A stretch of DNA of 64,000 nt. Origin: Leptospirales bacterium. Lineage in GTDB: Bacteria; Spirochaetota; Leptospiria; Turneriellales; JAOUFE01. The translations under genes were made by a program, and so were the position numbers. The notes beneath the pieces were generated by a model. It was not told the origin of the DNA and did not search any database. It saw nothing but the letters and a program-made list of their open reading frames with translations. Position 1 is the first letter of the stretch. Each line of letters opens with the position of its first letter. Positions 904 to 63,328 of this stretch are shown piece by piece. The stretch lies in NCBI GenBank assembly GCA_040326155.1, contig JBEQLE010000002.1, positions 1 through 64,000 of the forward strand, written 5' to 3'.

Positions 904-1785
904 ATGGACCATTTAGAGAAACTTGAGAGCATATCTGTCTATATTTTGCGGGAAGCTTATGCGAATTTTAAAAATCTGGGCATGTTGTGGTCGATTGGCA
1001 AAGACAGCACTGTCATGTTATGGTTGGCCAGAAAGGCATTTTATGGTCACGTACCTTTTCCCCTGGTTCACGTTGACACGAATTTTAAGATACCTGAAAT
1101 GATTCGCTACCGTGATGAACTGACCCGAAAATGGAAGTTAAACATGGTTGTCGGACAAAATGAAGACGCCCTGGAGAAAAAACTTACTTTTCCTGATGGG
1201 AATGTAGACCGACTGACTTGCTGTGGTCATTTGAAAACTCAGGGTTTAAAAGATACTTTAAGCGGAAGCGGAAAACGGTATCGCTTTAACCACGACATAG
1301 ATCAATACGAAGTCGATAAAAGTACCGAAGCTTTTACCGGAGTTATTGCCGGTGTTCGCGCTGACGAAGAAGGTTCTCGTTCTAAAGAACGCTATTTTTC
1401 GCCACGAGATAAAAACAACGATTGGGACCTTGGCGACCAGCCCCCCGAATTCTGGAATTATTATAAAACTGATTTTGCCCCTGGCACTCACCTGCGCATT
1501 CATCCCCTGCTCGACTGGACTGAACTTAATGTATGGGAATATATTCAACGTGAAGAGATTCCCACGGTTTCTCTCTATTATGACCAGGGTGAAGGAACCC
1601 GCTATCGATCGCTTGGGTGCTACCCTTGCACGACTCCCATTGAGTCGAAGTCGACAAATGTGGCTGAAATTATTAAAGAGTTACAAAGTGGTGACCTGAA
1701 GAATATAGCCGAACGTTCCGGGCGAGCCCAGGACAAAGCGGGCGGCGGCGGCCTCGAAGATTTAAGAAAACAGGGATATATGTAA
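904..1785 (+). CDS. cysD: Sulfate adenylyltransferase subunit 2
   Basis: [21 protein letters not shown] and [10 protein letters not shown] motifs; C-terminal LRKQGYM. Confidence 0.96.
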
Positions 1786-1786
1786 G

Positions 1787-3592
1787 ATGTCTATAACCGA
1801 ACAAGATCAAATGAACATCGTAATTGTCGGGCATGTCGATCACGGTAAAAGCACCGTTATAGGTCGGTTGCTTGCAGATACCGGTTCTTTACCCGATGGT
1901 AAGCTAGAGTCTGTGAAAGAGAATTGCAAACGTAATTCTAAGCCCTTTGAATACGCTTTTTTGCTGGACGCTTTAAAAGACGAACAGGCCCAGGGAATTA
2001 CCATCGACGCGGCTCGTGTGTTTTTTAAAAGCGATAAACGCCATTATATCATTATTGACGCTCCCGGCCATATTGAATTTCTAAAAAATATGATTACCGG
2101 GGCTTCTCGCGCTGAGGCCGCTTTGCTGGTTATTGACGCAGCCGAAGGCGTTCAGGAGAATTCTCGCCGTCACGGATACATGTTGTCCATGCTTGGTATT
2201 AAACAGGTTGTTGTACTTGTGAATAAAATGGACCTTGTAGAGTACGATGAAAAAGTATTTAACGCCATTCAAAAAGAGTATAATGAATTTTTAAGTAAAA
2301 TCGGTCTTAAGCCCGCTGCGTATATCCCGGTTTCGGGAATGAACGGAGTGAATATAGCCGGCAAAAATTCCGAGACCTCCTGGTTCGATGGAATGAATGT
2401 TTTAGAGGCGCTCGATATGTTTCAAGTGGAAGCGGCCCCACACGATAAGCCTTTTCGAATGCCCGTTCAAGATGTGTACAAGTTTACCCGTTTTGGCGAT
2501 AATCGCAGAATTATAGCTGGCACTGTGGAAACCGGTCGTTTACATAAAGGCGACACGGTTATGTTTTTGCCTTCGGGTAAAAAGAGTGTTGTAGATTCCA
2601 TTGAAGCCGTACACAAAGATGGTCAGGACTTTATTGAGTCTGGAATGGCCGGCGGTTTTACCCTGGCCGAGCAGATTTATGTTACTCGCGGTGAAATGGC
2701 CGTTAAAGTCGGCGAGGCATATCCCGAAGTAAGTACAACGTTTCAGGTCTCTCTTTTCTGGCTTGCGCATCAACCCATGGTGGAGAAGAAAGAGTATTTT
2801 ATTAAAATCGGAACTTCAAAAGTTGCCGTTAAACTTGAAAAAATTAATGGTATTATTGACGCCTCAAATCTCGGGTCACTTGAAAAAAACCAGGTGGAAC
2901 GGCACGACGTGGCCGATTGTACTCTGGTAACGCAAAAAGCCCTGGCGTTTGACCTTTCCGACGAGATTTCAGCGACATCTCGTTTCGTAATTATTGACAA
3001 TTATGAAATTACCGGAGGGGGAATTATACGCAAATCTGTCGAGAACACAACCTCTGACATACGCAACCATATTCAGATTAGAAATTACAAATGGGAAAAA
3101 GGCAGTGTTACTATGGCCAGGCGCGCCGAAAGACTTTGCCAGCGCCCTACCCTTGTTATTATTACCGGCGGAAAAGAGCAAGATAAAAAAACCCTGGCGA
3201 AATCTCTCGAAGAAAAACTTTTTGAGGACGGGCGTTATGTCTATTACCTTGGCATAGGTAATGTAAAATATGGCGTGGACGCCGACCTTGTCGAGAATAA
3301 ACAAAATGGCCGAGAGCATGTGCGCCGACTGGCTGAAGTTGCACATATTGTACTCGACCTTGGAGCTGTTTTAATTGTTACCGCTTCGGACCTTGACCAG
3401 GAACATCTGGAAGTTATTAAAGCGTCTATAAACCCTGAAGTCATTCAAACCATATGGGTTGGTAACGAGGTTACAACTGATATACAAAATGACCTTCATA
3501 TTCTGGACGATGAACTTGAGACAACAGATTGTGTAGCCAGAATTAAAGAAAATCTGCAGGACATTGGTACCTTTTTCAAAGTCTGGAACTAA
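1787..3592 (+). CDS. cysN: Sulfate adenylyltransferase subunit 1 (GTPase) fused to a degenerate APS-kinase-like domain
   Basis: [23 protein letters not shown] and NKMD motifs. The C-terminal CysC-like domain has an altered P-loop ([10 protein letters not shown]). Confidence 0.93.
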
Positions 3593-3597
3593 AAAAT

Positions 3598-4383
3598 ATG
3601 AGCATAAAAATTGAAGATATAATTACCCTGGCTCGCGAAGCCGGAGAAGCCATACTTGAAGTCTACAAAAGGGACTTTGATGTTGAAATAAAAGATGACA
3701 AGTCTCCCCTTACCGAAGCAGACAAGAAAGCAAACGAAATTATCGTGGCTAAACTCAAAGAGCTCTACCCTGAAATTCCTATTTTATCGGAAGAAGAAAA
3801 GGCTGCCGCCTATGAAACCCGAAAACAGTGGGGAACTTTCTGGTTGGTAGATCCACTCGATGGCACAAAAGAGTTTATAAAAAAGAATGGGGAATTTACC
3901 GTTAATATTGCCTTAATTGAAAATCATACTCCGGTTCTTGGAGTCGTTTTTGCCCCTGTACTCGATAAAATGTATTATGGTACAACTGAAAATGGATCGT
4001 GGTTGAGTACCGAAAAAGCCGAACCGGTGAAATTACCGAGAATTACCAACGACGAAAAAGAGAAAGCCATGACCGTGGTGGCCAGTCGTTCTCATATGTC
4101 CGAAGAGACAGAGCAATTTATTGAAGCTTTAAAGTCGAAAACAGCATCCGTAAATACCATTTCTATTGGAAGTTCACTCAAGCTCTGCCTTGTTGCTGAA
4201 GGCGAAGCCGATGTGTACCCCCGCCTCGGACCTACTATGGAGTGGGACACTGCCGCTGCTCACGCTGTTGTGGTAAATGCTGGAAAAAAAGTTTTGGTAT
4301 ATGAAAATGGAGCAACAACTGAAACCTCACTCTCTTATAATAAAGAGAACTTGTTAAATCCTTTTTTCGTTGTTACTGAGTAG
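3598..4383 (+). CDS. cysQ: 3'(2'),5'-bisphosphate nucleotidase
   Basis: KDDKSPLTEAD, LSEE, WLVDPLDGTKEF, GSSLKLC and TMEWDTAAAHA motifs. Confidence 0.95.
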   Translation: MSIKIEDIITLAREAGEAILEVYKRDFDVEIKDDKSPLTEADKKANEIIVAKLKELYPEIPILSEEEKAAAYETRKQWGTFWLVDPLDGTKEFIKKNGEFTVNIALIENHTPVLGVVFAPVLDKMYYGTTENGSWLSTEKAEPVKLPRITNDEKEKAMTVVASRSHMSEETEQFIEALKSKTASVNTISIGSSLKLCLVAEGEADVYPRLGPTMEWDTAAAHAVVVNAGKKVLVYENGATTETSLSYNKENLLNPFFVVTE

Positions 4384-17699: not shown

Positions 17700-19712
17700 A
17701 TGTATAATACTAACCACAAAGATATTACAGGCTATCGTCCTCATATTGACGGCTTACGTGCTGTCGCTGTTTTAGCTGTAATCGTGTATCACTTTAGCAT
17801 GAAATTATTGCCCGGTGGTTTTGCTGGTGTAGATATTTTCTTTGTTATCTCCGGCTATGTCGTGACGGCCACAATTTTTCGCTACGAAAGCAACAGCCTG
17901 AAAGAGTACTTGCTCTCTTTTTATGCCAGGCGAGCGAAAAGAATTCTACCGAATTTAATTCTTGTAGTTCTGGTCTTTTCAGTGGTCAGTTTTTTGTTTA
18001 TTCCTCCGATCAAAACCGGAGTGATAATGAAAACGGCGTACTACTCGTTATTTGGCGTCAGCAATTTTTATCTGGCTCACACCAATTTTGATTATTTTGG
18101 TATAGGGGGTAACTTTAATCCGTTTACCCATACATGGTCTTTAGGAGTTGAAGAACAGTTTTATGTTATATACCCGTTAATTATATACGCAATTTATTTT
18201 TTCTTCAAAAAATCCCATAAGATCGGACTATCACTAATCATTTTCCTTGGAGCTCTGTCTATTGGCATTTCTTTGTATTTAGTGATGAATAATCCCACAA
18301 ATGCATACTATTATATGCCTAGCCGATTTTGGGAACTCCTCGCCGGGGGCGGTTTATTTTTAGCGAAGGCTGGCGGTTTTCAACCTGAAAAAAAGCTATC
18401 GTATAAGAGCGCTACCGCGTGGCAATTCATTGGCGCAGTGTTAATTGCACTTGGTCTTGTTTACGCTTCGCTTGACAACGGTTTTCCGTTACCGACAGTT
18501 TTGCCCTCCATAATCGGAACAATGATTGTAATAATGATCGGTACGGCAGGAAATAATCCGGTTGCCCGTTTTTTATCAGCAAAACCCATTGTATATATCG
18601 GGCTTTTATCGTATTCATTATATCTTTGGCATTGGCCGGTTTTTACCATATTTCGATGGTCAATCGGTTTGGATACTTTTGGCACAGCAGCGGCTGCTAT
18701 TATTTTGACATTTATTTTCGCGTGGTTGGCTTATACTTACATAGAACAGCCTTTTCGAAAAGTAAAGGTTGTGAATATTCAATATAAAGTGCTCGTAATT
18801 GCCGTCATCTCTTTGGTTTTCACCGGATTTATCGTTAAAAAGGGCCATAAGAAATTCAAGAGATTATCCAATAATGGATATAATCCCATTATTTTTCAGA
18901 ACATTGATGTTCCGACAAAGCAATGGCCCCCAAGTATTAAGGAATGTCATTATAAATACTATAAAGACTCTGAAGAAGATGCGATTAAACGATGTTTAAG
19001 TAGAAATATAAATCCTGAACCGTCCCGTACAGTTTTTTTGTTAGGCGATTCGCATGTTCAAGCTCTTTCGTTTATGGTCAACGATGCTTTTAAAGATTCA
19101 AAAACGCAAGTTAACCAGATGCATAATAATGACATCCCTAAGATTTTAAATAATGAAAGCCCGGAACCTCTCTCTTTTGAATTTGTAGCCAGACACGCCA
19201 AACAGGGCGATCTTGTAATCGTCAGTTATTTTCATGGAAAATATTTCAATACACAATACCATATACCATTGGATTTAGAACCGATGGAGCAGGATAAAGT
19301 ATATGCAAAGTATCAAAATAGTTTGCAGTATTTTACCGAATTTGCCAAAAAACTTTCAAAAAAAAAGGCAAATCTTCTACTGATTATTGACGTACCACAA
19401 ATGAAAAATCCCGTACGAGTACAGCAATGCATTGTTCAGAAAAAACTTGATTTACCAAATGCATGCGATGTATCATCAAAACAGGCCCTACATTCTCGTA
19501 AACCAATGACTTTGCTGATTAATGAATTATCCGGGACAATTGACAACATATACTCATGGGATCCTTTTCCTATTGTTTGTCCCGGCCCGGTATGCCGGTT
19601 CCATGATGAGCGCGGGTTCATCATGAGTGACCATAACCATATTTCAAGAGAAATGTCGGAGTCTATGGGTGGTGAATTTCGAAAATACTTGCTTCAAATA
19701 GATTTAATGTAA
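17700..19712 (+). CDS. OafA-like O-acyltransferase (Acyltransferase_3 + periplasmic SGNH)
   Basis: YRPHIDGLRAVAV, GVDIFFVISG, HTWSLGVEEQFY and SYSLYLWHWP; SGNH motifs GDSH and DHNH. Confidence 0.92.
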   Translation: MYNTNHKDITGYRPHIDGLRAVAVLAVIVYHFSMKLLPGGFAGVDIFFVISGYVVTATIFRYESNSLKEYLLSFYARRAKRILPNLILVVLVFSVVSFLFIPPIKTGVIMKTAYYSLFGVSNFYLAHTNFDYFGIGGNFNPFTHTWSLGVEEQFYVIYPLIIYAIYFFFKKSHKIGLSLIIFLGALSIGISLYLVMNNPTNAYYYMPSRFWELLAGGGLFLAKAGGFQPEKKLSYKSATAWQFIGAVLIALGLVYASLDNGFPLPTVLPSIIGTMIVIMIGTAGNNPVARFLSAKPIVYIGLLSYSLYLWHWPVFTIFRWSIGLDTFGTAAAAIILTFIFAWLAYTYIEQPFRKVKVVNIQYKVLVIAVISLVFTGFIVKKGHKKFKRLSNNGYNPIIFQNIDVPTKQWPPSIKECHYKYYKDSEEDAIKRCLSRNINPEPSRTVFLLGDSHVQALSFMVNDAFKDSKTQVNQMHNNDIPKILNNESPEPLSFEFVARHAKQGDLVIVSYFHGKYFNTQYHIPLDLEPMEQDKVYAKYQNSLQYFTEFAKKLSKKKANLLLIIDVPQMKNPVRVQQCIVQKKLDLPNACDVSSKQALHSRKPMTLLINELSGTIDNIYSWDPFPIVCPGPVCRFHDERGFIMSDHNHISREMSESMGGEFRKYLLQIDLM

Positions 19713-19916: not shown

Positions 19917-20159
19917 ATGAGTAACGCAGATCAAATAATTAAATATATTACGGATGAGATTTTAGAGGATGAGGATCAAGTGATTGATGAGCAAACATCT
20001 CTTTTTGACGGGGGAGTTCTGGATTCTTTGAACCTAGTTACACTTATTTCATTCCTGGAAGATACTCATAAAATTAAAATAAAATCCTCAGAGGTAACTC
20101 TTGAAAATTTAAATACGGTTTCAAATATGATTAATTTTATTGATAAAAAATTAGCTTGA
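19917..20159 (+). CDS. Acyl carrier protein (DltC-like), cassette 1
   Basis: LFDGGVLDSLNLVTLISFLE contains the phosphopantetheine Ser; acidic 80-aa protein. Confidence 0.92.
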   Translation: MSNADQIIKYITDEILEDEDQVIDEQTSLFDGGVLDSLNLVTLISFLEDTHKIKIKSSEVTLENLNTVSNMINFIDKKLA

Positions 20160-21229
20160 GACAGATGAATAGACAATATCGAATATTACTTTGGTTCGTA
20201 TTCAGTTTTGTAACACTACAGGTTTTCGGGGAAGTACTTTTATCTATGGACTACCCATGGAAACTCAGTGTACTTGAACCATACCTGCTTCGGGGGAAGC
20301 AAGATGCATGGGTGCATAATGCATTTGAAATCCAAAGATTAAAGAAACTGGCTAAAACCGATAAAGAAATTAAATTAATCGTGTATTTGGGCGGCTCGGT
20401 TTGTGCTTCCGGAATAACCTCGGATGAAAAAGTCAGCAAACAACTTTCGACAGCACTTAAAAAGTCGGTTGTTTTTAGCCGACTTTGTTCCCCTTACAAG
20501 TCATTTGCCGATGAACTTAAAATAGTAGAAGAGCTTGGGGCAATCAATGCTACGATAATAATAAATACTGAAATTGGTAGATTTAGTCGGCCGAATGAAA
20601 AACAATTAGTAACTAGGAAGGATAAAAGTAAGTATTCATATAATAAATATTTCTACATACCTGTTACCGAAAGTATCAAAACTATATTTAAAGAATACAA
20701 TATTTCAATAGAGCTAAATCAGCATTTCAGATTATGGAAAACAGCTAAAGCATTGGGAATATCGATTCGAAAAAGATTTGTTAAACGTAAAAAATTGACC
20801 TATCATTATAATGGATACGTGTCGGGGACCCCTGTTAATGAAGACCATAAAACAGAGATAGAAGCTAGATTGACGGAAAGTAAAGGTAAATGGGGACAAA
20901 CTCAGGAATTTCAAGTTAATTTTTCACTCTTGAAAATGGCTATCGAAAAAGCCCAGTTGAATCAGAATCGTGTAATTTTAGTAGAGACTCCGGTGAACCC
21001 TTTGTTTGTTAAATATACCGAAGCAAACAGGTCTGAATATGAGAGTATTTTAAATCAAATTATAAAGTCACAAGGCCTGGGCTATCTCGATTTGCGGTAT
21101 GCTCTTAACTGGAAACCTGAAGAGTTTCGAGATTTGCATCATATGATTCATCCTGGCCCGGACCGATTTACCGCGATATTGGCCAAACGACTTAGTGAAA
21201 TTTTATTAAATATGGATTTACATAAATGA
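20156..21229 (+). CDS. Membrane-anchored SGNH/DltD-like acyltransferase, cassette 1
   Basis: N-terminal TM helix, VYLGGS (candidate catalytic Ser), ETPVNP, and C-terminal FRDLHHM (DxxH); lies between the ACP and the MBOAT. Confidence 0.7.
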   Translation: MRQMNRQYRILLWFVFSFVTLQVFGEVLLSMDYPWKLSVLEPYLLRGKQDAWVHNAFEIQRLKKLAKTDKEIKLIVYLGGSVCASGITSDEKVSKQLSTALKKSVVFSRLCSPYKSFADELKIVEELGAINATIIINTEIGRFSRPNEKQLVTRKDKSKYSYNKYFYIPVTESIKTIFKEYNISIELNQHFRLWKTAKALGISIRKRFVKRKKLTYHYNGYVSGTPVNEDHKTEIEARLTESKGKWGQTQEFQVNFSLLKMAIEKAQLNQNRVILVETPVNPLFVKYTEANRSEYESILNQIIKSQGLGYLDLRYALNWKPEEFRDLHHMIHPGPDRFTAILAKRLSEILLNMDLHK

Positions 21230-22404
21230 TTTTTTTTAACGAGTATTTTGTTTTGGCATTATTAGCCGCTCCCGTGATTTATTGGAAATTTGTACCTGAA
21301 AAGTATAGAAACCTGTTTATTATATTTTTTGGATTTATTGGTTTATCCTTTGTTCAGTTAAATTTCAGTATTTTCCTGATGTTAATCGTTGTGTTTGTAT
21401 TTTACGCGGCCCGCTTTATGCAACGATCCCATAAAGGCAGAGTATTAACTTTAATAATTATCGTCCTGACATTATTGCTTGCAGGTTTTAAATATTTTAA
21501 GGTTTTTTATCTAGCAATTTTTGAAGCTGAAACTGATTTTTCTAAAAGCTACCTGGTGCCGCTTGGTTTATCATATCTGATCTTTAAACTGATTGCCTAT
21601 GTTGTCGACATTTTTCGAGAAGAAATCAAAGAATCTAGTTTGCAAGGTTTACTTGCCTTTATCTTTTTCATACCAAGTTTTCCTGCCGGTCCGATTGAAA
21701 GATATCAACATTTTATTTCGGGAAGACGCAATAGCTTTGATTCCACGTTTTATCTCGCAGGCTTGAAGAGATTGACCATTGGCTATTTTAAAAAAGTTGT
21801 TCTTGTAAACTTTTTATTAACATACATCGTAAACACAAAGCTCTCCGGAATTCTGGATACAGACCAGGGAGCATTATATGGTTCTTTCATTGCATTGTCC
21901 TTTCTGGTAGGTTCTCTGGTTTACGCTTATATCGATCTGTCAGCCTATGCGGATATTGCCATAGGTTACGGGCAATTATATGGCTATCAAATATGTGAAA
22001 ATATGAATTATCCGTTATTTGCCCAAAACCTGAGTGAATACTGGCAGCGCTGGCACATGTCTCTATCCCAGTGGTGCCGCAATAATGTCTATTTCCCGAT
22101 GCTAGGGTCGACGCGTAACAATAATATTTCTTTATACGCTAGTTTTCTGGTAATGGGCTTATGGCATTATGCAAGTTTAAACTGGATATTGTGGGGTCTC
22201 TGGCATGCCAGCGGTATAATCATATATTCAAAATTGAATCGATTTCGAAAGAAGAAAAAGATTAAAAAACTTTTGCCAAAAAAAATTGGGTACGCTGTTG
22301 GCATGGCAATTACCGTTATCTATTCCGGTTTAGGTTTTGCCTTTATTACCCAGAAGACGACATCGGAAGCTTTAAAACTGCTTGGCAAAGTATTTGGTCT
22401 ATGA
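21226..22404 (+). CDS. MBOAT acyltransferase (DltB/AlgI family), cassette 1
   Basis: PLGLSYLIFK, AGPIER, YWQRWHMSLS and GLWH (catalytic His) motifs. Confidence 0.93.
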   Translation: MIFFNEYFVLALLAAPVIYWKFVPEKYRNLFIIFFGFIGLSFVQLNFSIFLMLIVVFVFYAARFMQRSHKGRVLTLIIIVLTLLLAGFKYFKVFYLAIFEAETDFSKSYLVPLGLSYLIFKLIAYVVDIFREEIKESSLQGLLAFIFFIPSFPAGPIERYQHFISGRRNSFDSTFYLAGLKRLTIGYFKKVVLVNFLLTYIVNTKLSGILDTDQGALYGSFIALSFLVGSLVYAYIDLSAYADIAIGYGQLYGYQICENMNYPLFAQNLSEYWQRWHMSLSQWCRNNVYFPMLGSTRNNNISLYASFLVMGLWHYASLNWILWGLWHASGIIIYSKLNRFRKKKKIKKLLPKKIGYAVGMAITVIYSGLGFAFITQKTTSEALKLLGKVFGL

Positions 22405-22411
22405 GGTTAAC

Positions 22412-22534
22412 ATGGTAGAAAGAATCAAAGAAGCAATGATAGGTTTTATTTGGGCACTGTTTGTGCTCTTTATCTTGTTTGTTCATTACACCTTATGTGA
22501 AGCAGTTCCGGTTTTTCGATATGAAGGTTTTTAG
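22412..22534 (+). CDS. DltX-like 40-aa membrane peptide (not in the ORF track)
   Basis: Hand translation: MVERIKEAMIGFIWALFVLFILFVHYTLCEAVPVFRYEGF*. GAGG RBS at 22403-22406, one TM helix, C-terminal FRYEGF; fills the MBOAT-VOC gap. Confidence 0.85.
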   Translation: MVERIKEAMIGFIWALFVLFILFVHYTLCEAVPVFRYEGF

Positions 22535-22537
22535 AAA

Positions 22538-22942
22538 ATGGAATTTCACCATATTGGAATCGCTGTAAAAAAATTAACGGAATCGTCCGTTTTGTTTGAA
22601 AATATTCTGGAAACTGCCTTTTCAAATACCGAAGATGTTGATTCACAAAAAGTTCAAGTGACTTTCGGCGGCGGAGTGGAATTATTGCAGGCGACGGATA
22701 TCCATTCCCCGCAATTTCCCATGATGAAACATCCCATTCTCAGCCATCTCGATAAGCACGGAGAGGGGATTCATCATATTTGTTTTTCAGTTGAAAATCT
22801 GGAAGCAAAAGTAAACGAACTGAAAAAATCCGGCATAAAACCATTGACCAATGATCCGATCATTGGGGCCGGCGGCAAAAAGGCAATTTTTCTACATCCG
22901 AAAGACTGTAATGGGACTTTAATAGAGTTGATGGAAAAGTAA
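22538..22942 (+). CDS. VOC-superfamily protein, methylmalonyl-CoA epimerase-like
   Basis: FHHIGIAV, VELLQ, GEGIHHICF and FLHPKDCNGTLIELME metal-ligand motifs. Confidence 0.85.
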   Translation: MEFHHIGIAVKKLTESSVLFENILETAFSNTEDVDSQKVQVTFGGGVELLQATDIHSPQFPMMKHPILSHLDKHGEGIHHICFSVENLEAKVNELKKSGIKPLTNDPIIGAGGKKAIFLHPKDCNGTLIELMEK

Positions 22943-24427
22943 ATGAGCGATATAATTAATTCCCCCCTCGATTTCTTAACGGAGCATTCATTGAAAAGCC
23001 CCGGAAAATGTGCTATAAGAATCAACAATATTGATTATACCTATGATATGTTTTCACGCGAAGTAGGACTTTTCGCGAAACTGTTCAAGTCGCACGGAAT
23101 CGGGCAAGGCAGTTTGGTTGCAGTATACTCTGATCATGAGTTTGACGTATTATGCACTATTTTTGCATTATGGACAATCGGTGCCGTTTGTATACCAATA
23201 AATCCAACTTATAAAACGGACAAATTACAGCAAATCGAATCGACAGTTCGGCCTGATTTTGGTTTTTATTCTGTTGATTATGATATAACATACGATCGCC
23301 AATATCCGATGTCTTTGATTGAAAAATCAAATGAACCCGGAAATGTGGAGGTTGTACACCCGAAAGCGGATGACCCGGCTATGATTATGTTTACTTCGGG
23401 AACATCGGGAGTTCCCAAAGCGGTCCCCATTACGCATGGTGCGATTGCAAGGAATTCACTGAGTACGGCAAGTCGGCTTGGTTTAACGAAGGAAGATGTT
23501 CTTTTTATTAATACGCCCCCTTATACGACTAGTTCAATTATTCATGTATTAACAATGATGTCACAAGGCGCTCAGACCGTTATTGATCGAAGTTTTTTAT
23601 TTGGCGCCGCCATTATCGATAAAATAGAAGAGCATCAATGTACTTGCTTTGGGGGAGTTCCGATTCATTTTACTCGATTACTTGCTGCCTTAGAAGAAAA
23701 AGATGCACCGAAAAAACTTCATAAGCTAATTAATTCAGGGGATCATTTATCTGTTCCTGTGCTGGAAAAACTACAAAAATTAATGCCGCAGGCCGCCATG
23801 TACTGCATTTACGGGCTTACTGAGGTAGCTGGCAGACTGTGTGTTTTACCTCCGGAACTCGTACGCAGCAAATCAGGTTCCGTTGGATTCCCTATTGAAG
23901 GGATGTCCGTAACGATTAGAGGTTCCAAGCTGGAGCTCCTTCCTGCCGGGGAAACAGGCGAGGTTTTTATTCAGGGCCCGAATTTAATGAAAGGTTACAT
24001 AAATAACCCGGAGGCTAATGAAAAATCGATGACCTCGGTGGGATTTGCCACCGGCGACTTCGGTTATTTGGACAGCGACGGTTGCCTTTATTTAAAAGGG
24101 CGGAAAGACGATATTTTTAAGGTTGGCGGTGAAAAAGTCAGCGTGAAAATGATAGAGGAAGCTCTTGTTGGTTACGAAGAATTTGCGGACGCAATGGTTG
24201 CTCCAGAATACGATGAACACATGGGTAATTACATACCCTGTCTTTATTATGTTCTAAAAAAAGATGCAACCTTTAGTCGTAAGAAACTATTGGGGATACT
24301 CAGGAAACGTCTTCCGCAAAACCATATACCCACAAAGTTTGTGGAACTCGAAGAAATACCGCGAACAAGCTCGGGTAAGTCCATCAGAAAAGTTCCTTCG
24401 CCGGGGCAACCATTGAAGCAACAATAA
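22943..24427 (+). CDS. ANL-superfamily adenylating enzyme (acyl-ACP/CoA ligase), cassette 1
   Basis: FTSGTSGVPK, YGLTE, ATGD, GRKDD.FKVGG and PRTSSGK motifs. Confidence 0.92.
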   Translation: MSDIINSPLDFLTEHSLKSPGKCAIRINNIDYTYDMFSREVGLFAKLFKSHGIGQGSLVAVYSDHEFDVLCTIFALWTIGAVCIPINPTYKTDKLQQIESTVRPDFGFYSVDYDITYDRQYPMSLIEKSNEPGNVEVVHPKADDPAMIMFTSGTSGVPKAVPITHGAIARNSLSTASRLGLTKEDVLFINTPPYTTSSIIHVLTMMSQGAQTVIDRSFLFGAAIIDKIEEHQCTCFGGVPIHFTRLLAALEEKDAPKKLHKLINSGDHLSVPVLEKLQKLMPQAAMYCIYGLTEVAGRLCVLPPELVRSKSGSVGFPIEGMSVTIRGSKLELLPAGETGEVFIQGPNLMKGYINNPEANEKSMTSVGFATGDFGYLDSDGCLYLKGRKDDIFKVGGEKVSVKMIEEALVGYEEFADAMVAPEYDEHMGNYIPCLYYVLKKDATFSRKKLLGILRKRLPQNHIPTKFVELEEIPRTSSGKSIRKVPSPGQPLKQQ

Positions 24428-24447: not shown

Positions 24448-25848
24448 ATGACTATGCAAAGAATAACAGTAATTGGCTTAAGCGGCTCAATACGTTCCAA
24501 TCACAACCATTTTAAAACATTGAATCAAATGATTGTAAAAGCAAAAGATCGTGCTGAATTTACCACCTTATTGAAAAATTCGGATTATGTCTACTCGAAT
24601 ACCGATATTGCGTTATCTGTAGCCCTTCTCGGAGCAAAACAAAACGATGCCGATGTAAAGATTATTTCTCTTACCGATTTATTCCGGCATAGAAATGAAA
24701 AGCTATACGAAAATCTGACGGAGATGGTAACCGTCAATGATATTGAAGAACTTGATACGTTGAGTATTGATCAAGAACATTTAAAAAATATTTCTAACGA
24801 CATTAATAAGGCCGATGGAATAATCATGGGGACCCCGGTATATTTTGGTGATCGTTCATCGGTTGCAAATAAAATATTACAATTAACCAGCATTCAAAAC
24901 CAACTGAGAAATAAGGCAATCGGCGTGGTATCGGTCGGAGCCAAACGCAATGGTGGTCAGGAAACTGCAATTATATATACTCTATACGAAGTCCTGATGC
25001 AAGGTAGTATTATTACGGGAAACGGTCCGAAAACCGCCCAGTATGGTGGAACGGTTGTGGCGGGTGATTCGGGTATGGCGATTGAAGATAACTTTGGTAT
25101 GGACACTTCTTACGGAACCGGGAAACAAGTGTCACAACTATCCAAAATATTAAAAGCGGGCCAAGAAAAATCCGGAGGTTCTCCCAGAGTAATATTTTTA
25201 CTTTCTATGGATACTCCAGAGAAAAAATATAACAAGATTTTAGATGAGTATATTTCACGCCAGCAAGAACTGACCAATTATGAGACTGTCGATTTAACTG
25301 ATAAAAATATATATCGTTGCATTGCATGTAATGTTTGTCCGTCCGTAACAGTTAAGAAAAGGAAGGAATCCGAAGTTTCTCCGTATACTTGTGTTATTCA
25401 AACGGAAAAAGATTACATGAAAGAGCTCCGTTTAAAGCTTATAGACGCTGATGTTATTATTATTGTCGGAGTAAATTCAAATGAGAACTTAACATATCGT
25501 TATCAGGCTTTTATGGAGAGAACCCGGTTTATTCGCAGGGAAGACTTCGAATTGACTAACAAAGTAATAACAAGTTTATTAATTAATGATGTTGGCTCCA
25601 TGCATAATCCGATCTTTGGAGTAAAAGTAGTTACTTCCTTTATTCGCCATAACACATTTATGACTACTCCCTTGCAAATTATGATGCATAATAATACAAT
25701 AATTAGAGAAGACTCTTTAGATGATTCTTTCCCAAATTTCAAGCAAATTCTAAACGGAAGAAAAATGGTACAACCGATCAAAGTAAGTTATAAAGCTACG
25801 GGATATGCAAATAAATCACTAGACAACTCGGAGACCAAACGCCAATAA
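24448..25848 (+). CDS. Tandem flavodoxin-like (FMN reductase/Isf-type) protein with a Cys cluster, cassette 1
   Basis: GLSGSIR, GTPVYFG and GAKRNGGQE in the N-domain; CIACNVC-x17-C in the second domain. Confidence 0.8.
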   Translation: MTMQRITVIGLSGSIRSNHNHFKTLNQMIVKAKDRAEFTTLLKNSDYVYSNTDIALSVALLGAKQNDADVKIISLTDLFRHRNEKLYENLTEMVTVNDIEELDTLSIDQEHLKNISNDINKADGIIMGTPVYFGDRSSVANKILQLTSIQNQLRNKAIGVVSVGAKRNGGQETAIIYTLYEVLMQGSIITGNGPKTAQYGGTVVAGDSGMAIEDNFGMDTSYGTGKQVSQLSKILKAGQEKSGGSPRVIFLLSMDTPEKKYNKILDEYISRQQELTNYETVDLTDKNIYRCIACNVCPSVTVKKRKESEVSPYTCVIQTEKDYMKELRLKLIDADVIIIVGVNSNENLTYRYQAFMERTRFIRREDFELTNKVITSLLINDVGSMHNPIFGVKVVTSFIRHNTFMTTPLQIMMHNNTIIREDSLDDSFPNFKQILNGRKMVQPIKVSYKATGYANKSLDNSETKRQ

Positions 25849-40097: not shown

Positions 40098-40790
40098 ATG
40101 AAAATTTATCGAAAAGCAAGAAGTGTAATTAAAAGGTCGCTGGGATTAACATACCCGCCCGGGCTGGCTCATGAAAAGGTAGTCTCTGATGAATATAAAT
40201 TCATTTGGTTTCCCATACCTAAAGTGGCATCTTCAAGTTTAAGATTGCTTTATTATAACCACCCAGACATACATGATATTCAAGTATTAAACGTACCAAA
40301 CTCGAAAGTGAATCGGTTATATGGAGAATTTTACAAGTTTGCCTTTGTAAGAAATCCATGGGCCAGAGTGGTCAGTTGTTATAAAAATAAGATTTGCCAC
40401 CCGAATTATGATATGGTTAAACTATACTTTCGGTTTAAAGGTTTATATCATAATATGCCTTTTAAAGAGTTTGTCCATTTTTTGTTGGAAGGACCGGGTT
40501 CCGATCGAAAGGGTAATACCCATTGGATATCGCAACATAAATTTTTATATCATAAAGAAAATTGCCTGGTTGATTTTATAGGAAAATTTGAAAACTTAAA
40601 TGAGGATTATCTGAAAGTAATGAAACAGATTGGATTAAACGCTGCGGACCTTCCCTATGTCGACCCCGCCGGTAAAAGTAAAATAAAACATGATCCGTAT
40701 AGTTACCGGAAACACTATACCGATGAGACGAGAGATATTGTGGCAATGCGCTACGCCAAAGATATTGATTTGTTTTCTTACACCTTCTAG
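40098..40790 (+). CDS. Sulfotransferase family 2
   Basis: IPKVASSS (5'-PSB), FAFVRNPWARVVSCY (3'-PB), HW.SQ and FIGKFENL motifs. Confidence 0.88.
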   Translation: MKIYRKARSVIKRSLGLTYPPGLAHEKVVSDEYKFIWFPIPKVASSSLRLLYYNHPDIHDIQVLNVPNSKVNRLYGEFYKFAFVRNPWARVVSCYKNKICHPNYDMVKLYFRFKGLYHNMPFKEFVHFLLEGPGSDRKGNTHWISQHKFLYHKENCLVDFIGKFENLNEDYLKVMKQIGLNAADLPYVDPAGKSKIKHDPYSYRKHYTDETRDIVAMRYAKDIDLFSYTF

Positions 40791-48453: not shown

Positions 48454-49377
48454 ATGAGCAATGAAATTGATACAAAAGTCGCTTTTATAGTCGGATCGCC
48501 CCGATCAGGGACGACGATATTAGGGGAAATACTTAATGAACACCCCCGTATGGCGCAATGGTATGAGCCTTATTTTATCTGGGATAAACATTTTCGAAAT
48601 GCGGAAAATGACCGGCGCACCCCGGAAGACGCGGAAATAAAAGTAGTCGATCAAATTCGAAAAGATTTCAGTCGTTATGCAAAAAACAGAGTAGTGGATG
48701 TTGTCATTGACAAGTCGCCGCGCAACAGTTTAACTATTGAATTCATCCTCGAGATCTTCCCGAACGCAAAATTTATTCATATATTACGCGACGGACGCGA
48801 TGTAACCAGTTCCATTCACCGGGAATGGAACAAAAGAATAAGTATTTTTAATAAAAATAATCGAGAACAAAAATTTGATTATAAGGCCGCTTTTTTAACT
48901 CTAAAAACATGGTTAGATCGACAACCCTTTTTGAGAGACAAATTGCGTGCATTTTGGCATGAAACGAACGGGCATTTATTCAATAAAGGAAAAACTTTAA
49001 ACAGGACGCGTTGGCATGGAAGAGTCGGATGGGGTCCACGCTATCAAAACTGGGAAGAAGATTTAATATCCGGAGAATTGATTGAGTTCAATGCAAGGCA
49101 ATGGTTGAACTGTGTTGATTCCATATTCAAGTCATGGCCGAAAATAAAAAAAGAAAACAAGCTTCTCATTAGATATGAAAATATGTTAATAAATCCGGAG
49201 AAAACTCTTTCTCAAGTCACAGAATTTCTCGGACTGGAGCCGTGCGTTGAGGTGACTGAAGCCGGTAAAGTTTTACGTCCCGGTAATACCGGGAAATGGG
49301 CCAAAGATTTATCGTCTGAAGATGTGAAATTGATTACACCGATTATTAAACCTATGCTGAAAAAAATCGGCTACTGA
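48454..49377 (+). CDS. Sulfotransferase
   Basis: IVGSPRSGTT, DKSP, IHILRDGRDV and IRYEN motifs. Confidence 0.9.
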   Translation: MSNEIDTKVAFIVGSPRSGTTILGEILNEHPRMAQWYEPYFIWDKHFRNAENDRRTPEDAEIKVVDQIRKDFSRYAKNRVVDVVIDKSPRNSLTIEFILEIFPNAKFIHILRDGRDVTSSIHREWNKRISIFNKNNREQKFDYKAAFLTLKTWLDRQPFLRDKLRAFWHETNGHLFNKGKTLNRTRWHGRVGWGPRYQNWEEDLISGELIEFNARQWLNCVDSIFKSWPKIKKENKLLIRYENMLINPEKTLSQVTEFLGLEPCVEVTEAGKVLRPGNTGKWAKDLSSEDVKLITPIIKPMLKKIGY

Positions 49378-58114: not shown

Positions 58115-58823
58115 TTATAAGTTCTGTTTCAGAAGTTTAAGAACATAAGGCATATAATAAGCGCGACCATTATCATTTAAATGAGCTTGGTCTGCAAAAT
58201 AAATATCATTTTTAATAAGCATGTTTTCGGGAATTCGTATATGAGCTAAATTCATATATTTCTCTTCCAGCTCTGCCATTTTTTTGTTAATAACAGGGTT
58301 ATACTGGGGTTGGGGTAAATCCAGAATGATCAGTTTAATTCCTTTTTGTTCACATAACAAGTACAACTCTTCGAGTAAATGGAAACTTATGTCCGTCCAA
58401 TTCTGGTCGGAAGTTATCGATTTTTTTTCTTTGTAGCTGATTTGACCAAGCTTGTTTTGTTAAATCATCCCACGTTTCCGTGCGAACTTTATTTCGATAT
58501 CTTTTCTTGTTTTGTGGCATTACCTCTGTGTTGTGCGGCAAGTTTTGAGACTTAGCATATGGAAAATTTCGTTTTATAAATTTAGTGGAACTTTTTAGAT
58601 AGTATATATACGGATTTATTAGCCGGACTATTTTGTAGGATAGTTTAATATCGTCTTTTTTCAATCCGTATAATTCCGTGAATCTATTTTGCCTCAAATT
58701 GGGTATATCTTTTGAACTTTTTTCCGGTGTTTGTTCTTTTTGTCGAGTGGTTGTTTTATAGAGGTAAAAAACAAAAGATGAAAATAATAGAAATATGAAA
58801 ACATGAATGACAGTAGATAACAT
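58115..58823 (-). pseudogene. Frameshifted, internally shortened DltD-like/SGNH paralog
   Basis: ORFs 58350-58823 and 58115-58366 both align with the 63349-64000 protein (INPYIY/INPYVY; LYLLCEQKG..IILDLPQ; YFADxxHLND.GRAYY). Removing one base from the T8 run at 58421-58428 joins them. Confidence 0.75.
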
Positions 58824-58976: not shown

Positions 58977-60377
58977 ATGAATACCGTTGTTAAAATTATA
59001 GGTCTAGTCGGTTCCATTCGTTCAAACCACAATCATTTGGATGAGCTTTCTCAGATCATCCATGTGTCTGCAGATCTTGATACGCTTTTGAAAAACATCA
59101 AGGCTTGCCCTCATGTGTTTTCAAATACCGATATTGCTGTAGCAGCAGCACTCATGGGGGCAAAAAGTAACGGCGCCGCCGTTGAAATTATTTCTCTCGT
59201 TGATTTGTTCCGCCACCGGAGCGAAGATTTATACAAAGAACTGGATAGCTTTGCGACGATCGATGATCTTGATGAAATTGACACGTTATCCATTAATGAT
59301 AAAGCCCTTGTTTCGATTATGCAATCCCTGACAGAGTGTCATGGTATCATCCTCGGGTCTCCCGTTTATTTCGGAGATCGTTCTTCGGTCGCGAATAAAA
59401 TTCTTCAACTGACCGGTAAATCTGATATTTTGAAAGATAAAGCTTTTGGGTCGGTTGCCACCGGTGCGAAGCGAAATGGGGGTCAGGAGACGACAATTAT
59501 TTACACGCTATACGAAGCCATCCTTCAAGGAGCAGTTGCCGTGGGCAATGGGCCAAAAACAGCTCAGTACGGTGGGACCGTATATGCCGGCGATGTCGGT
59601 AAGGCCGTTGAAGACGTCTTCGGTATGGATACCTCTTTTGGAACGGGTCGTCAGGTCGCGCAGCTGGCAAAAATTATTCAAGCCGGTACGATCAGTCCGG
59701 CAAAGCGAAAACCCAAAACCCTGTTTTTAGTAACTATGGACAATGCCGAAAAAAAATATCAGAAAACTCTGGAAGATTATATTAAAAAGCAAAAACATGA
59801 GTTTGACCATGAAGTTGTTAACCTGACTACGGAAAATATTTATCGGTGTATTGCCTGCAGTGCCTGTCCCTCGCCTGCTTTAACCGAAAAGTATAAAGAT
59901 CAGGAAAATCCATATACTTGTGTCGTCCAAACTTCGAAAGATAATATGAAGTATCTGCGGGAAAAAATGGTAGATGTCGACGTTATCGTTCTAGTTGGAG
60001 TAAATACCAATGAACCGCTTACATATCGCTACCAGGCTTTTATGGAGAGGACCAGGTTTATACGACGTAACGATTTCGAGCTTACGAATAAAATTATTCT
60101 GAGTTTAAATATTGAGGAAGTCGGGGCGACTAAGAACAATATTTTTGACGTTAAGGCAATTACGTCTTTTATTCGTCATAATACCGTCATTGTGAAACCG
60201 TTACAGTTGATTTTTCACAAGGGTAAAATTCTGGTAGAACCTGATTTCGCAGAATATTTCCCCATTTTTGATAAAATTGTAAATGGACGTTTTGAAATCG
60301 ATCCTTTTGAAGTGAGTTATAAAGCGACAGGGTATGATAACAAAACACTGGACCATACTGCGGCAATCCGAAGGTAA
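58977..60377 (+). CDS. Tandem flavodoxin-like Fe-S protein, paralog of 24448-25848 (cassette 2)
   Basis: Same length (466 aa); shares GSIRSNHNH, PVYFGDRSSVANKILQLT, GAKRNGGQE, CxxCxxC-x17-C and YRYQAFMERTRFIRR. Confidence 0.85.
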   Translation: MNTVVKIIGLVGSIRSNHNHLDELSQIIHVSADLDTLLKNIKACPHVFSNTDIAVAAALMGAKSNGAAVEIISLVDLFRHRSEDLYKELDSFATIDDLDEIDTLSINDKALVSIMQSLTECHGIILGSPVYFGDRSSVANKILQLTGKSDILKDKAFGSVATGAKRNGGQETTIIYTLYEAILQGAVAVGNGPKTAQYGGTVYAGDVGKAVEDVFGMDTSFGTGRQVAQLAKIIQAGTISPAKRKPKTLFLVTMDNAEKKYQKTLEDYIKKQKHEFDHEVVNLTTENIYRCIACSACPSPALTEKYKDQENPYTCVVQTSKDNMKYLREKMVDVDVIVLVGVNTNEPLTYRYQAFMERTRFIRRNDFELTNKIILSLNIEEVGATKNNIFDVKAITSFIRHNTVIVKPLQLIFHKGKILVEPDFAEYFPIFDKIVNGRFEIDPFEVSYKATGYDNKTLDHTAAIRR

Positions 60378-60381
60378 TTGT

Positions 60382-60504
60382 TTAGAAACCCATATAACGA
60401 AACGGGCGAAAACCGGCATTTTTCATGAGTACAACGATGAGAACTACCCAGTATAAGATAGAAAAAAGAAATCCGTAAAACAATGACCTGAATAATAATT
60501 TCAT
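60382..60504 (-). CDS. DltX-like 40-aa membrane peptide (not in the ORF track), cassette 2
   Basis: Hand translation of the reverse strand: MKLLFRSLFYGFLFSILYWVVLIVVLMKNAGFRPFRYMGF*. AGGAGA RBS at 60509-60514, one TM helix, C-terminal FRYMGF; directly follows the MBOAT. Confidence 0.87.
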   Translation of the reverse strand: MKLLFRSLFYGFLFSILYWVVLIVVLMKNAGFRPFRYMGF

Positions 60505-60513
60505 AGTTTCTCC

Positions 60514-61728
60514 TTAATTAAACAGAATTGCAAACGCGTAAGAATACAACTTTACTACAACCTGAAAATCGTGTACGGCTACCATCACAAACACAAATGA
60601 AACAAAATATATTGTAATTATATTACCGGTAATGCGCAGGAACAATGCGCCTGCCTTGTTGTTTTTCATCCGTTTAAACCATCTCATTTCCCGAATTTTA
60701 CCGTAAAAGTTGATTCCAGTTGCATGTAATATTGCCCAGGTTATCCAGTTTAATGTTAATGCGTGCCATATTCCGATGGTCAACATGCTCAGGTAGGTCG
60801 ATATCCAGGCTTTTTTAGTTTTAATTAAGGCTGGAAAAAAAACATAGTCTCGTGTCCAGTTTGATAAAGACATGTGCCACCTTTGCCAGAACATGGAAAG
60901 GTTGCTTGCCAACAGAGGTTTGTTAAAATTTTCCTGATGGGTAAAACCCAGTAATTTAGAAAAAGATTTACTGATTTCCGTATACAACATTAAATCGAAG
61001 TAGGCATGGATGAAAGCGCTAAAACCAAAAAGTGAGAGTTTCAGAAAAAACAAATGGTCTTTCCCACTATCCATATTTTGCATTAGTAAAGGTAACGTTT
61101 TCTCGTATGTGTATTGGTATAAATAATTATCGATAAGCAAAAATTTCACACTTATGGCGGTAAATAGTAAAAGGTAAATATTACGACGGGGCTTTCCGGA
61201 AAACTGTGTTTCGAGATATTTAAAGTCACGAAATCTTTGAATAGGGCCGGCCAGTATTATTGGGAAGAAAAAGACGTATGAATAATAATCTATCGGGTTT
61301 ATATTTTCGAACTCCTTCGGACGATTCGCATAATCAATCATCATCGATAATAACCTGAAATAGTAATAAGAGACGCCTAAAGGTATATATGGATTTTCAA
61401 TGTTCAGAAAATACTGGTAATCTTTTATCAGTAACAAGAGCCCGATGGAGCATAAGACAAACAGAGATAACTTTTTTTTAATCTGTATTTTTTTGTATAT
61501 AAGAATATAAACAATGGTTGATAATAACAGCAGTTGAAAAAATGACCCTACGTCGAGCCAGATTAGAAGTCCACCGGAGATGATAATGATAAGGGACTTT
61601 TTTTTATGGATATTTTCATTTTTAAAAGACCATTCAAGAAAAATGATAATAGATATTACAATAATGATAAAAAAGATTATAAGGTTATCGCCCAGAAAAT
61701 CTGCAATTTCTAAAATAGTTTCCAGCAT
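60514..61728 (-). CDS. MBOAT acyltransferase (DltB/AlgI family), cassette 2
   Basis: PLGVSYYYFR, AGPIQR, ENFNKP, FWQRWHMSLS and GIWH motifs. Confidence 0.93.
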   Translation of the reverse strand: MLETILEIADFLGDNLIIFFIIIVISIIIFLEWSFKNENIHKKKSLIIIISGGLLIWLDVGSFFQLLLLSTIVYILIYKKIQIKKKLSLFVLCSIGLLLLIKDYQYFLNIENPYIPLGVSYYYFRLLSMMIDYANRPKEFENINPIDYYSYVFFFPIILAGPIQRFRDFKYLETQFSGKPRRNIYLLLFTAISVKFLLIDNYLYQYTYEKTLPLLMQNMDSGKDHLFFLKLSLFGFSAFIHAYFDLMLYTEISKSFSKLLGFTHQENFNKPLLASNLSMFWQRWHMSLSNWTRDYVFFPALIKTKKAWISTYLSMLTIGIWHALTLNWITWAILHATGINFYGKIREMRWFKRMKNNKAGALFLRITGNIITIYFVSFVFVMVAVHDFQVVVKLYSYAFAILFN

Positions 61729-61734
61729 AATTTT

Positions 61735-63075
61735 CTATAACGGTTTTAAGTCTTTTAAAAGCCGACCAATTTCCTTTCTATCAATTTTCATCGTCTGGGT
61801 AAAAGGAAAATTTTCCATGGTGTAATATTTATGCGGCAACTCGTTATTTTCAAGTTTACCCTTAAGTTTTTTAATAAGTTCTGAGCGTCCTATTCCGCAA
61901 TCTCCTTCAAACACAAGGCAGATTAAATTTCCCAAGGTGGGGTGTTCCTGCGGGACCACAGCGATGCCGGTCTCGGGAAAAATTTCCGTTACCTTGCCCT
62001 CGATGTGTTTCAAAGAGACTTTATTGCCCCCGACTTTTATTTCATCGTCGCTTCGACCTGCCAGGACCATCACCCCATGGTCTGTTTTAACAATGTCGCC
62101 AGTTGCATGCCACTGTATGGATTTGTCAAAAATGCCGTTGCGAATATATCCCTGGAACAGGAAATCTGACTTTACGTACAACTGCCCTTCTCTGGTCTCG
62201 TACTCCATTCCCTCTATGCAATTGCCGATTCCGTCAATAAGTTCGGGAGCCATCGACGAGTTTACCGGTTGAATAAAAAAGCGACCACCGAGTTCGGCCA
62301 GCCCGTAGACTTTGAAAAAAACAGCTTCGGGAAATTTTGACAGAATACTTGTGATGGAATTTTTATAAATAAAATCTCCGGATGTAAAAAAGAATGCCGG
62401 TTTATAATTCGGTTTGATTTTCGCCAGCGACATTAGTATGTGCATGGGAGAACCCAAAATGGAACAATTTTCATTTTTTTCCAGTATTTCGGGAAGAGAA
62501 TCAATATGATCGAAATCGGAAAAAATTAAAAAACTTTCGGTAATATAATGAACAAGAAAATGACTCAATGCACTCATCAGGTAAGGTTTAAGCATGGTAA
62601 TTCCGGTGAAACCCGAAAGGCCCATCGCGCTTGCCGTTTCTCTGGCATTGTCAAAAAAGTGTTTTTTTACATGGACAATCCCTTTGGGGGTTCCCGTGCT
62701 TCCGGATGAAAAGATGATGGTATCAAAATCTATTTTTTCCATTGCCTCGACTTCCGTGAAATCGGGGTTTTCAGTGATTTGAATTTTTTCATCATTGTAT
62801 TGTATAACGTGAGTGTAGTGTGGAAATATTTTTTTTCCCTGAAAGTGATCTCTTGTCGGGAAAATGACTTTGGCATCGGCTTTCCACGCGGCAAATAATA
62901 TTGTATATAACTCTATTGGGTTTTCAGTGGCGATTAAATAAAAACGTTCGGGAGCCGACGGTATGGCTCCGGTCAATAGGTTGACACGTTCGGAAAACTC
63001 GGTGTCAGTCATCGATGTATCACGATACTGAATCAGTTTCCGGTTTTCGTGTTTGCTTAACAGTTGATCAAGCAT
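61735..63075 (-). CDS. ANL-superfamily adenylating enzyme, cassette 2
   Basis: FSSGSTGTPKG, YGLAE, ATGD, GRSDDEIKVGG and PFTQTMKIDR motifs. Confidence 0.9.
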   Translation of the reverse strand: MLDQLLSKHENRKLIQYRDTSMTDTEFSERVNLLTGAIPSAPERFYLIATENPIELYTILFAAWKADAKVIFPTRDHFQGKKIFPHYTHVIQYNDEKIQITENPDFTEVEAMEKIDFDTIIFSSGSTGTPKGIVHVKKHFFDNARETASAMGLSGFTGITMLKPYLMSALSHFLVHYITESFLIFSDFDHIDSLPEILEKNENCSILGSPMHILMSLAKIKPNYKPAFFFTSGDFIYKNSITSILSKFPEAVFFKVYGLAELGGRFFIQPVNSSMAPELIDGIGNCIEGMEYETREGQLYVKSDFLFQGYIRNGIFDKSIQWHATGDIVKTDHGVMVLAGRSDDEIKVGGNKVSLKHIEGKVTEIFPETGIAVVPQEHPTLGNLICLVFEGDCGIGRSELIKKLKGKLENNELPHKYYTMENFPFTQTMKIDRKEIGRLLKDLKPL

Positions 63076-63328
63076 TGTTATTATTCAACTTGGTTTCAAG
63101 ATAATCGACGATACGATTCACCGTTCCGAGTGTATCAAGTGTAAGGTCGAAAGGGTCGATCGATATGGAAAACTCAGTTTCCATGAACATGATAACCTGC
63201 AGAACATTGATTGAATCGAGAAAGTCATTTTTAAATATTTCTTCATCAACACTTGTCAGTGTTTTTCCAGCGAGAGTTTCCACCTCTCCTTTTATTTTGT
63301 TTATTAGTTTCGCTCTTTCTATGGCCAT
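63068..63328 (-). CDS. Acyl carrier protein (DltC-like), cassette 2
   Basis: FLDSINVLQVIMFMETEF contains the phosphopantetheine Ser. Confidence 0.9.
   Translation of the reverse strand: MAIERAKLINKIKGEVETLAGKTLTSVDEEIFKNDFLDSINVLQVIMFMETEFSISIDPFDLTLDTLGTVNRIVDYLETKLNNNNA

Follow-up and report, generated by a model that had tools for sequence, protein, structure and literature searches.

A DltX-like 40-residue peptide encoded beside a short MBOAT, a candidate acyl shuttle of a Dlt-type relay in a Leptospirales surface-glycan locus

We describe a 40-codon open reading frame (ORF) in the genome of a Leptospirales bacterium (GenBank assembly GCA_040326155.1) which, by analogy with known systems, very likely encodes the acyl-shuttle subunit of a Dlt-type relay. 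The peptide is DltX-like in build and most likely works like DltX, but it stands outside the DltX Pfam family; its translation and acylation are proposed here. Evidence for such a relay includes a pattern of gene pairing, in which short MBOATs are accompanied by a separate peptide and fused MBOATs are not. The ORF lies in a stretch of 64,000 nucleotides (contig JBEQLE010000002.1, positions 1 to 64,000), referred to below as the window. It belongs to a gene cassette, cassette 1, set in a surface-glycan locus of ~60 kb that encodes an ABC exporter (Wzm/Wzt-type), many nucleotide-sugar enzymes, glycosyltransferases, sulfotransferases and NeuB/NeuA-like genes. LpxC and three matches to FlaA are present in the host genome, indicating a diderm of the spirochaete type that has lipid A. 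The features of cassette 1 are as follows.

19917..20159, + strand: stand-alone acyl carrier protein (ACP), 80 aa, with Ser37 in DSL (PF00550)
20156..21229, + strand: DltD-like SGNH transferase, 357 aa, with an N-terminal membrane helix and Ser81/Asp326/His329 (PF04914, 25 bits against a cut-off of 22.7)
21226..22404, + strand: short (DltB-length) MBOAT, 392 aa, without a fused motif, ending LLGKVFGL (PF03062, E 2.7e-21)
22165-22167, + strand: codon of MBOAT His314, which aligns with DltB His336 (DltB chains 6bug/8jem)
22403..22406, + strand: GAGG overlapping the MBOAT stop codon, Shine-Dalgarno-like in sequence and putatively in function
22412..22534, + strand: ORF of the DltX-like peptide, ATG start, 40 codons; a one-helix membrane peptide and proposed acyl shuttle
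22520-22522, + strand: codon of Tyr37, within the C-terminal tail F35-R-Y37-E-G-F40
22538..22942, + strand: methylmalonyl-CoA-epimerase-like VOC protein, a candidate cargo-tailoring enzyme (TIGR03081, 107 bits against a cut-off of 115)
22943..24427, + strand: AMP-forming ligase, 494 aa, with Thr196 at the DltA Asp site and the A10 Lys479 present (PF00501/PF13193)
24448..25848, + strand: tandem flavodoxin-fold (FMN_red) protein with a Cys cluster, accessory (PF03358)

An initial annotation of this DNA had proposed a 40-codon ORF with its own ribosome-binding site, one transmembrane helix and the tail FRYEGF, and each of these elements was found. The ATG lies 7 nt past the MBOAT stop codon (22402-22404) and 5 nt beyond the GAGG stretch, and the ORF ends 3 nt ahead of the next gene. 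The best 19-residue mean hydropathy is 2.33, corresponding to one hydrophobic helix in a 40-aa protein, and the distance from this helix to Tyr37 is 11 residues (11 and 15 in two DltX controls). Charges flanking the helix are +2/-2 on the N side and +1/-2 on the C side, a weak bias of one charge; across 31 peptides the N side is the more positive in 22, the bias expected for an N-in, C-out topology. Just past the helix, a His-Tyr-x-x-Cys stretch (22484-22498) is common to the closest peptides (L101, P0163, P0165, P0166, P0168 and P0213), and its Cys29 would provide a second thiol near the peptide tail.

The same annotation called the peptide unannotated, and neither the 40-aa form nor the 50-aa form that would arise from an alternative upstream TTG start is present in a collection of about 15 billion predicted proteins. 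The MBOAT upstream of it is present in that collection (P0001), and we therefore conclude that gene callers missed the peptide here. Close relatives called in other assemblies (P0163, P0166, P0168, P0213) are 40-42 aa long and start at a position identical to that of the ATG form; peptide relatives in other genomes are annotated as hypothetical proteins. DltX, too, is often missed by annotation, according to passages of PMC5541007.

Within the genome, 40,371 short ORFs of 25-100 aa were counted, of which 17 end in FxYxxF and only four of these 17 also have a transmembrane helix; two of the four directly follow the genome's only two short MBOATs, 7 and 9 nt past their stops. When a leave-out profile built from 14 outside peptides was run against 41,241 short ORFs, the peptide of cassette 1 ranked first (E 8e-9, or 2e-4 after removal of its closest relative), while the second peptide of the window (60382-60504) was not among the top five. 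A broader profile was built from 28 outside peptides, leaving out both window peptides and their closest relative; it placed the two window peptides first and second among the 41,241 (E 9e-5 and 0.004; the next at 0.06). Mismatches fall on codon positions in the order 3 > 1 > 2 in all five homologous gene pairs (for the peptide gene against L101, 21 third-, 14 first- and 9 second-position mismatches). On sequence grounds, the 40-codon ORF is a conserved coding gene. No match to Rfam was found. The peptide gene contains a terminator-like hairpin (22452-22468), but such hairpins are no more frequent than chance would give (6 found against 4.4 +/- 2.4 expected), and a YlaC match of the peptide (E 0.048, 13.9 against a cut-off of 27.5) was rejected as a hydrophobic match.

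Short ORFs are common, and a helix followed by the motif also terminates fused MBOATs, so one could imagine a chance ORF or the severed end of a recently broken AlgI/PatA-type MBOAT. We regard either as next to negligible. The peptide frame differs from that of the MBOAT (offset 1186 nt), and read-through of the stop would therefore not join the two; the motif is missing at the end of all 54 close homologues of the MBOAT; in other loci the peptides lie upstream, downstream or genes away from the MBOAT; fused MBOATs occupy one side of a starred branch in the MBOAT tree, apart from all short ones; and the substitution pattern is of the coding type. His314 is invariant in the same 54 homologues (54/54, aligned). 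That the MBOAT ends LLGKVFGL, with no motif of its own, agrees with the initial annotation.

From this missing motif the initial annotation had expected a separate peptide, and it had set beforehand that conservation next to homologous MBOATs be looked for; the expectation held both here and beside such homologues, where a peptide is present. A protein search with the MBOAT returned 638 relatives, among which those of about 390-405 aa form a separate set. We scored 227 MBOAT rows taken from genome and metagenome loci, and 37 were dropped (23 duplicates, 9 open-ended and 7 without a readable His motif; the sets overlap). The remaining 190 non-redundant, complete rows comprise 167 motif-fused MBOATs, none of which has a separate peptide (0/167), and 23 unfused ones, of which 13 have a separate peptide under a strict filter, one of the 13 being a true dltXABCD control. 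Five of the ten unfused MBOATs missing a peptide were recovered through variant tails or wider flanks; among the remaining misses, L102, L106 and L174 lie at contig ends, whereas L060, a full-length MBOAT ending without the motif, and L120, a motif-less MBOAT on a 3-kb contig without peptide, ACP or ligase, are without explanation. Past the His motif, fused MBOATs extend for 139-228 aa and short ones for 63-88 aa.

The pairing was also seen in 18 widened genome loci, taken from separate searches (1/15, 6/9 with the rest fused, and 11/11 matches) of four other phyla, those of KSB1, Acidobacteria, Paracoccaceae and Bdellovibrionota. Here, 15 of the 16 unfused MBOATs have a peptide (14 by a relaxed filter and one, with a hydropathy of 1.31, by hand), the single miss being cut at a contig start, and neither of the two fused MBOATs has one. 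It should be noted that the filter was relaxed after variant tails had been seen. Its background amounts to 12 matches in the 167 mostly fused loci (1.5 Mb) and 33 in the host's own genome; 10 of those 12 are cut ends of longer edge genes, which we read as neighbouring fused MBOATs. ACP genes lie near 11 of the 167 fused MBOATs, and carrier use is thus not exclusive to the split type. In L228 and L229, the peptide and ACP are present and the ligase is absent within about 8 kb.

The cassette is sparse, occurring in at least 1 of 151, at least 6 of 251, at least 4 of 401 and at least 5 of 251 genomes searched. Within the phylum of the host, a cut of E 1e-60 gave a match in 1 of 301 genomes, but the same cut failed to recover the window's second MBOAT, so this figure is no count of range. 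No close match was found among 60 relatives searched, a genome-contig scan with a single protein found only distant, fused MBOATs, and the plasmids searched yielded no close MBOAT and no flavoprotein match.

The motif proposed initially for the tail was F-x-Y-x-x-F. Its Tyr is present in all 31 peptides, but its last Phe is not fixed, and the tail of the family is better written F-R-Y-x-G-F. Across the 31 peptides the counts are F 30, R 25, Y 31, x, G 21 and F 23; the relaxed filter required F-6 and Y-4, so their invariance is partly built in, while Arg at -5 (25/31) and Gly at -2 (21/31) are kept though absent from the filter. Strict FxYxxF is passed by 22 of the 31 and failed by 9, the last position also being L, Y, M or N. 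When 1.84 billion representatives were searched with a profile, 69 matches were obtained, 68 of which are 33-74 aa long with an FRYxGF-type tail; the other, P0157 (1053 aa, 14 stretches), was dropped as a repeat-helix match. A Pfam scan of 66 profile matches matched no family, and no description of the FRYxGF family was found in the literature searched, which consisted of main texts, largely of open-access papers.

Whether these peptides are DltX-like, as first proposed, depends on the level of comparison: the likeness stands for the build (helix, tail and Tyr at -4) and fails for membership of the DltX family, PF12459. No match to PF12459 was found in 16 peptides, in 28 at E up to 1, or in 66 at E up to 0.01, while the control DltX of L171 matched at E 1e-19. 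Profile comparison of the peptide family gave probabilities of 49.5% to DltX and 57.7% to fused tails, in both cases over the tail only, and the nearest ESM Atlas clusters of the peptide are DltX-rich (0.88-0.89), which is a lead only. The sequence link to DltX is limited to the helix and tail. DltX (formerly DUF3687), which serves teichoic-acid D-alanylation in Firmicute dltXABCD operons, likewise has ~40-50 aa, one transmembrane helix and a C-terminal hexapeptide with Tyr at -4, and is likewise encoded alongside a ligase, a carrier protein, a short MBOAT and a DltD-fold protein. Its tail, its frequent omission from annotation and the occurrence of dlt genes in a few Gram-negatives are between them confirmed in passages of PMC13653941, PMC5541007, PMC3544676, PMC4079955 and PMC13721041. 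The differences are the tail itself (FRYxGF here, FIYNEF in DltX), the diderm host, the variable gene order, the tailoring genes alongside and a ligase without the DltA Asp.

The other parts of cassette 1 show the same relation. Against the Dlt family models, their scores and cut-offs in bits are 146 and 560 for DltA, 146 and 375 for DltB (TIGR04091), 34 and 68 for DltC, and 18 and 150 for DltD; as judged from these scores, analogues of DltA, DltB, DltC and DltD are all present and orthologues are not, all being far below the Dlt cut-offs. The model of the DltD-like protein has a pLDDT of 83.6 and its ten best Foldseek matches are all DltD, at a modest TM of 0.38-0.45; its Ser81/Asp326/His329 triad is invariant in 13/13 rows. 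The ACP is below the cut-off of every named ACP family, and the genome encodes two phosphopantetheinyl transferases.

We propose that the ligase would activate a small carboxylic acid and load it on the ACP as a thioester, that His314 of the short MBOAT would move the acyl group to an ester on Tyr37 in the outward-facing tail of the peptide, that the tail would pass it to Ser81 of the DltD-like protein, and that the latter would esterify a surface glycan (O-antigen or capsule type) made by the surrounding locus. These transfer steps and the topology are modelled on Dlt and PatAB chemistry, and Tyr-relay chemistry is described in parts of PMC12148441 and PMC13653941. PatA/PatB, AlgI/AlgJ and WssH/WssI share the same proposed His-Tyr-Ser relay and hexapeptide position (sections of PMC12148441); they differ in carrying the motif on extra MBOAT helices and in using an acyl-CoA donor, whereas here the motif is a separate gene accompanied by an ACP and a ligase.

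A two-chain prediction of the MBOAT-peptide complex scored 0.47, compared with 0.00 for the best of three controls. The mark used for such scores is reached by 116 of 157 solved pairs and 2 of 215 mismatched ones, but only 18 of the 157 solved pairs, and both of those mismatched ones, reach it with a score of 0.60 or under. The runs agree in at least 50% of contacts, with a partner pLDDT of at least 71. The predicted complex gives weak support to the pairing, and its score may reflect likeness to solved MBOAT structures. A real peptide might also serve only to hold the MBOAT and the SGNH protein together, with Tyr as a docking residue that is never acylated; the DltX tail binds DltD directly (a passage of PMC13653941), so docking alone could conserve a tail. 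We nevertheless consider this improbable, as every one of the 31 peptides has its Tyr at -4, matching DltX and PatA, in which it is acylated (part of PMC12148441), and neither L226 nor the hand-found peptides replace it with Phe, though the filters required Tyr. An acylated Tyr37 remains our preferred reading.

In adenylation domains, the DltA-type Asp binds the alpha-amino group. The ligase of cassette 1 has Thr196 where DltA of L171 has the Asp of its SFD motif, and a DltA-type Asp is absent from all cassette ligases (0/15). This replacement makes an alpha-amino acid cargo unlikely, and from the ligase sequences we think there is a good likelihood that the cargo is something else, and so probably not D-alanine. 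The best NCBIfam matches of the ligase are acyl-CoA ligases, and its PDB and NCBIfam matches name no substrate. A diverged but true D-alanylation system (dltXABCD) in a diderm would be consistent with the presence of all five Dlt functions and with the occurrence of dlt genes in some Gram-negatives (passages of PMC3544676, PMC5541007 and PMC4079955). We find it very improbable, since every part scores far below its Dlt family cut-off, the Asp is replaced as described, and the MBOAT groups apart from the four DltB rows of the tree. The precedent would be Dickeya and Pectobacterium, which, together with Photorhabdus, are also diderms with Dlt-type genes and an acceptor described as unidentified (a section of PMC3544676); unlike the cassettes here, theirs are annotated DltA/B/C/D homologues for alanine, a comparison made by annotation and not by sequence.

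For a cargo other than an alpha-amino acid, the neighbouring genes offer some leads. The VOC protein has human MCEE as its best PDB match (E 9e-20), and its gene is the only epimerase-like copy in the genome and recurs only in the L103 cassette. Methylmalonyl-CoA mutase was not found in the genome, which is 94.7% complete; with a single epimerase-like gene and no mutase, a housekeeping role is doubtful. The flavodoxin-fold protein has one paralogue, and the two copies, the only ones in the genome, each abut a cassette of the window; related genes also lie beside the cassettes of L103, L104 and L225. These proteins carry their Cys cluster in the second half, and their ESM Atlas clusters, with 121 and 52 members, resemble each other. 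Past the flavodoxin-fold gene, a PhyH-type dioxygenase gene also lies downstream of cassette 1. In other cassettes, TauD-family genes follow the ACP in all three tested (L107, L109 and L112), and a PLP decarboxylase (L223), two ligases (L208, L226) or an acetate-ligase-like enzyme (L205) are found. The epimerase-like gene and the varied tailoring genes suggest that custom acyl groups may be tailored on the carrier.

The acceptor of the acyl group is probably a glycan. The same relay might serve a lipid or a glycoprotein instead of the locus polysaccharide, as the best match of the ACP is an ornithine-lipid ACP model (far below cut-off, 46 against 130) and the cassettes of L112, L113 and L227-L229 lie outside obvious glycan loci. 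We judge this rather unlikely, given that the two cassettes of the window are located inside a glycan locus or at its edge and that DltD-type enzymes act on polymers (part of PMC12148441). Sulfate-activation genes (PAPS-reductase-domain, GTPase/APS-kinase and inositol-monophosphatase family) and three sulfotransferases (904-4383, 40098-40790, 48454-49377, 55867-56757) make sulfation of the glycan probable. An AT3-SGNH fused acyltransferase (OafA/OatA type, 17700-19712) is encoded immediately upstream of cassette 1, and with this gene beside the cassettes at least three routes of transmembrane acylation are encoded in the locus.

The second cassette lies inside the same glycan locus or at its edge and comprises the following features.

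58977..60377, + strand: second tandem FMN_red protein, converging on the second peptide
60382..60504, - strand: second peptide, 40 aa, ending FRYMGF, 9 nt past the second short MBOAT
60514..61728, - strand: second short MBOAT, 404 aa, with His322 and without a fused motif
61735..63075, - strand: second AMP-forming ligase, 446 aa, likewise lacking the DltA Asp
63068..63328, - strand: second ACP, 86 aa
63349..64000, - strand: second DltD-like protein, 398 aa, with its start at contig position 64545, beyond the window

The genome has four MBOATs, two of them long and motif-terminated and two short, each followed by a peptide. The second MBOAT is distant, forming a long branch in the tree, and the second ligase has the C-terminal motif TQTMK instead of the usual SGK. 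Nearby, two ORFs of 157 and 83 aa (58115-58823, - strand) match both ends of the second DltD-like protein and may be a split or decayed duplicate.

A quick, unrooted tree was made of 48 MBOATs. In it, a starred branch (98) sets the 21 fused rows apart from the rest, the four DltB rows form a starred branch of their own (100), and 21 short rows fall between DltB and the fused MBOATs, such that split against fused needs one change. For speed, nine rows were omitted from the tree (seven fused, L114 and P0098), and its fused rows are unnamed search matches. Some loci of the family depart from the usual layout. In L206 (5106-8543) and L207 (1760-8646), the MBOAT is encoded on the other strand and runs towards the ligase, DltD-like and peptide genes, and the tails end in Leu. 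In L230 (508-1884) and L231 (10288-11871), a translation-GTPase-like gene, putatively release factor 3-like, is inserted in the cassette, separating the DltD-like gene from the ligase; L104 (3212-9981) has tandemly duplicated DltD-like, MBOAT and peptide genes that share one ACP and one ligase. L224 (3815-11436) and L225 encode longer unfused MBOATs (555-573 aa, with an extra N-terminal part), and in L224 a fused MBOAT immediately follows the cassette.

The relay chemistry is already known, and what is gained here concerns its range and cargo, not its principle. In the prevailing picture, Dlt, with its carrier protein and microprotein, transfers D-alanine in Gram-positives, whereas all other systems use acyl-CoA and a fused motif; the FXYXXF relay is described in sections of PMC12148441 (2025), where other MBOAT/SGNH pathways are said to have neither a carrier protein nor a microprotein of the DltX type. 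The FRYxGF family has both, outside Firmicutes and apparently without D-alanine, and since its cassettes carry an ACP and a peptide, that generalization, as worded in those sections, is breached. With the FRYxGF tail as a simple tag, as yet undescribed acyl modifications of surface glycans can be searched for by sequence. A separate peptide would also account for short 'AlgI' genes that seemingly have no shuttle, and it is a part needed for reconstituting such cassettes.

More tentatively, and with somewhat less than even confidence, we propose that the FRYxGF peptides define a third branch of MBOAT relays, spread over several phyla. It would be a modular export platform in which every cassette assembles an acyl group of its own on an ACP, using interchangeable enzymes, and exports it through a common Tyr relay to the surface glycans of diderms; the split state, which DltB also has, could predate the fused AlgI/PatA state. 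If this is true, the host would place two different non-amino-acid acyl groups, one of them possibly a chiral methylmalonyl-type group, on its surface polysaccharide.
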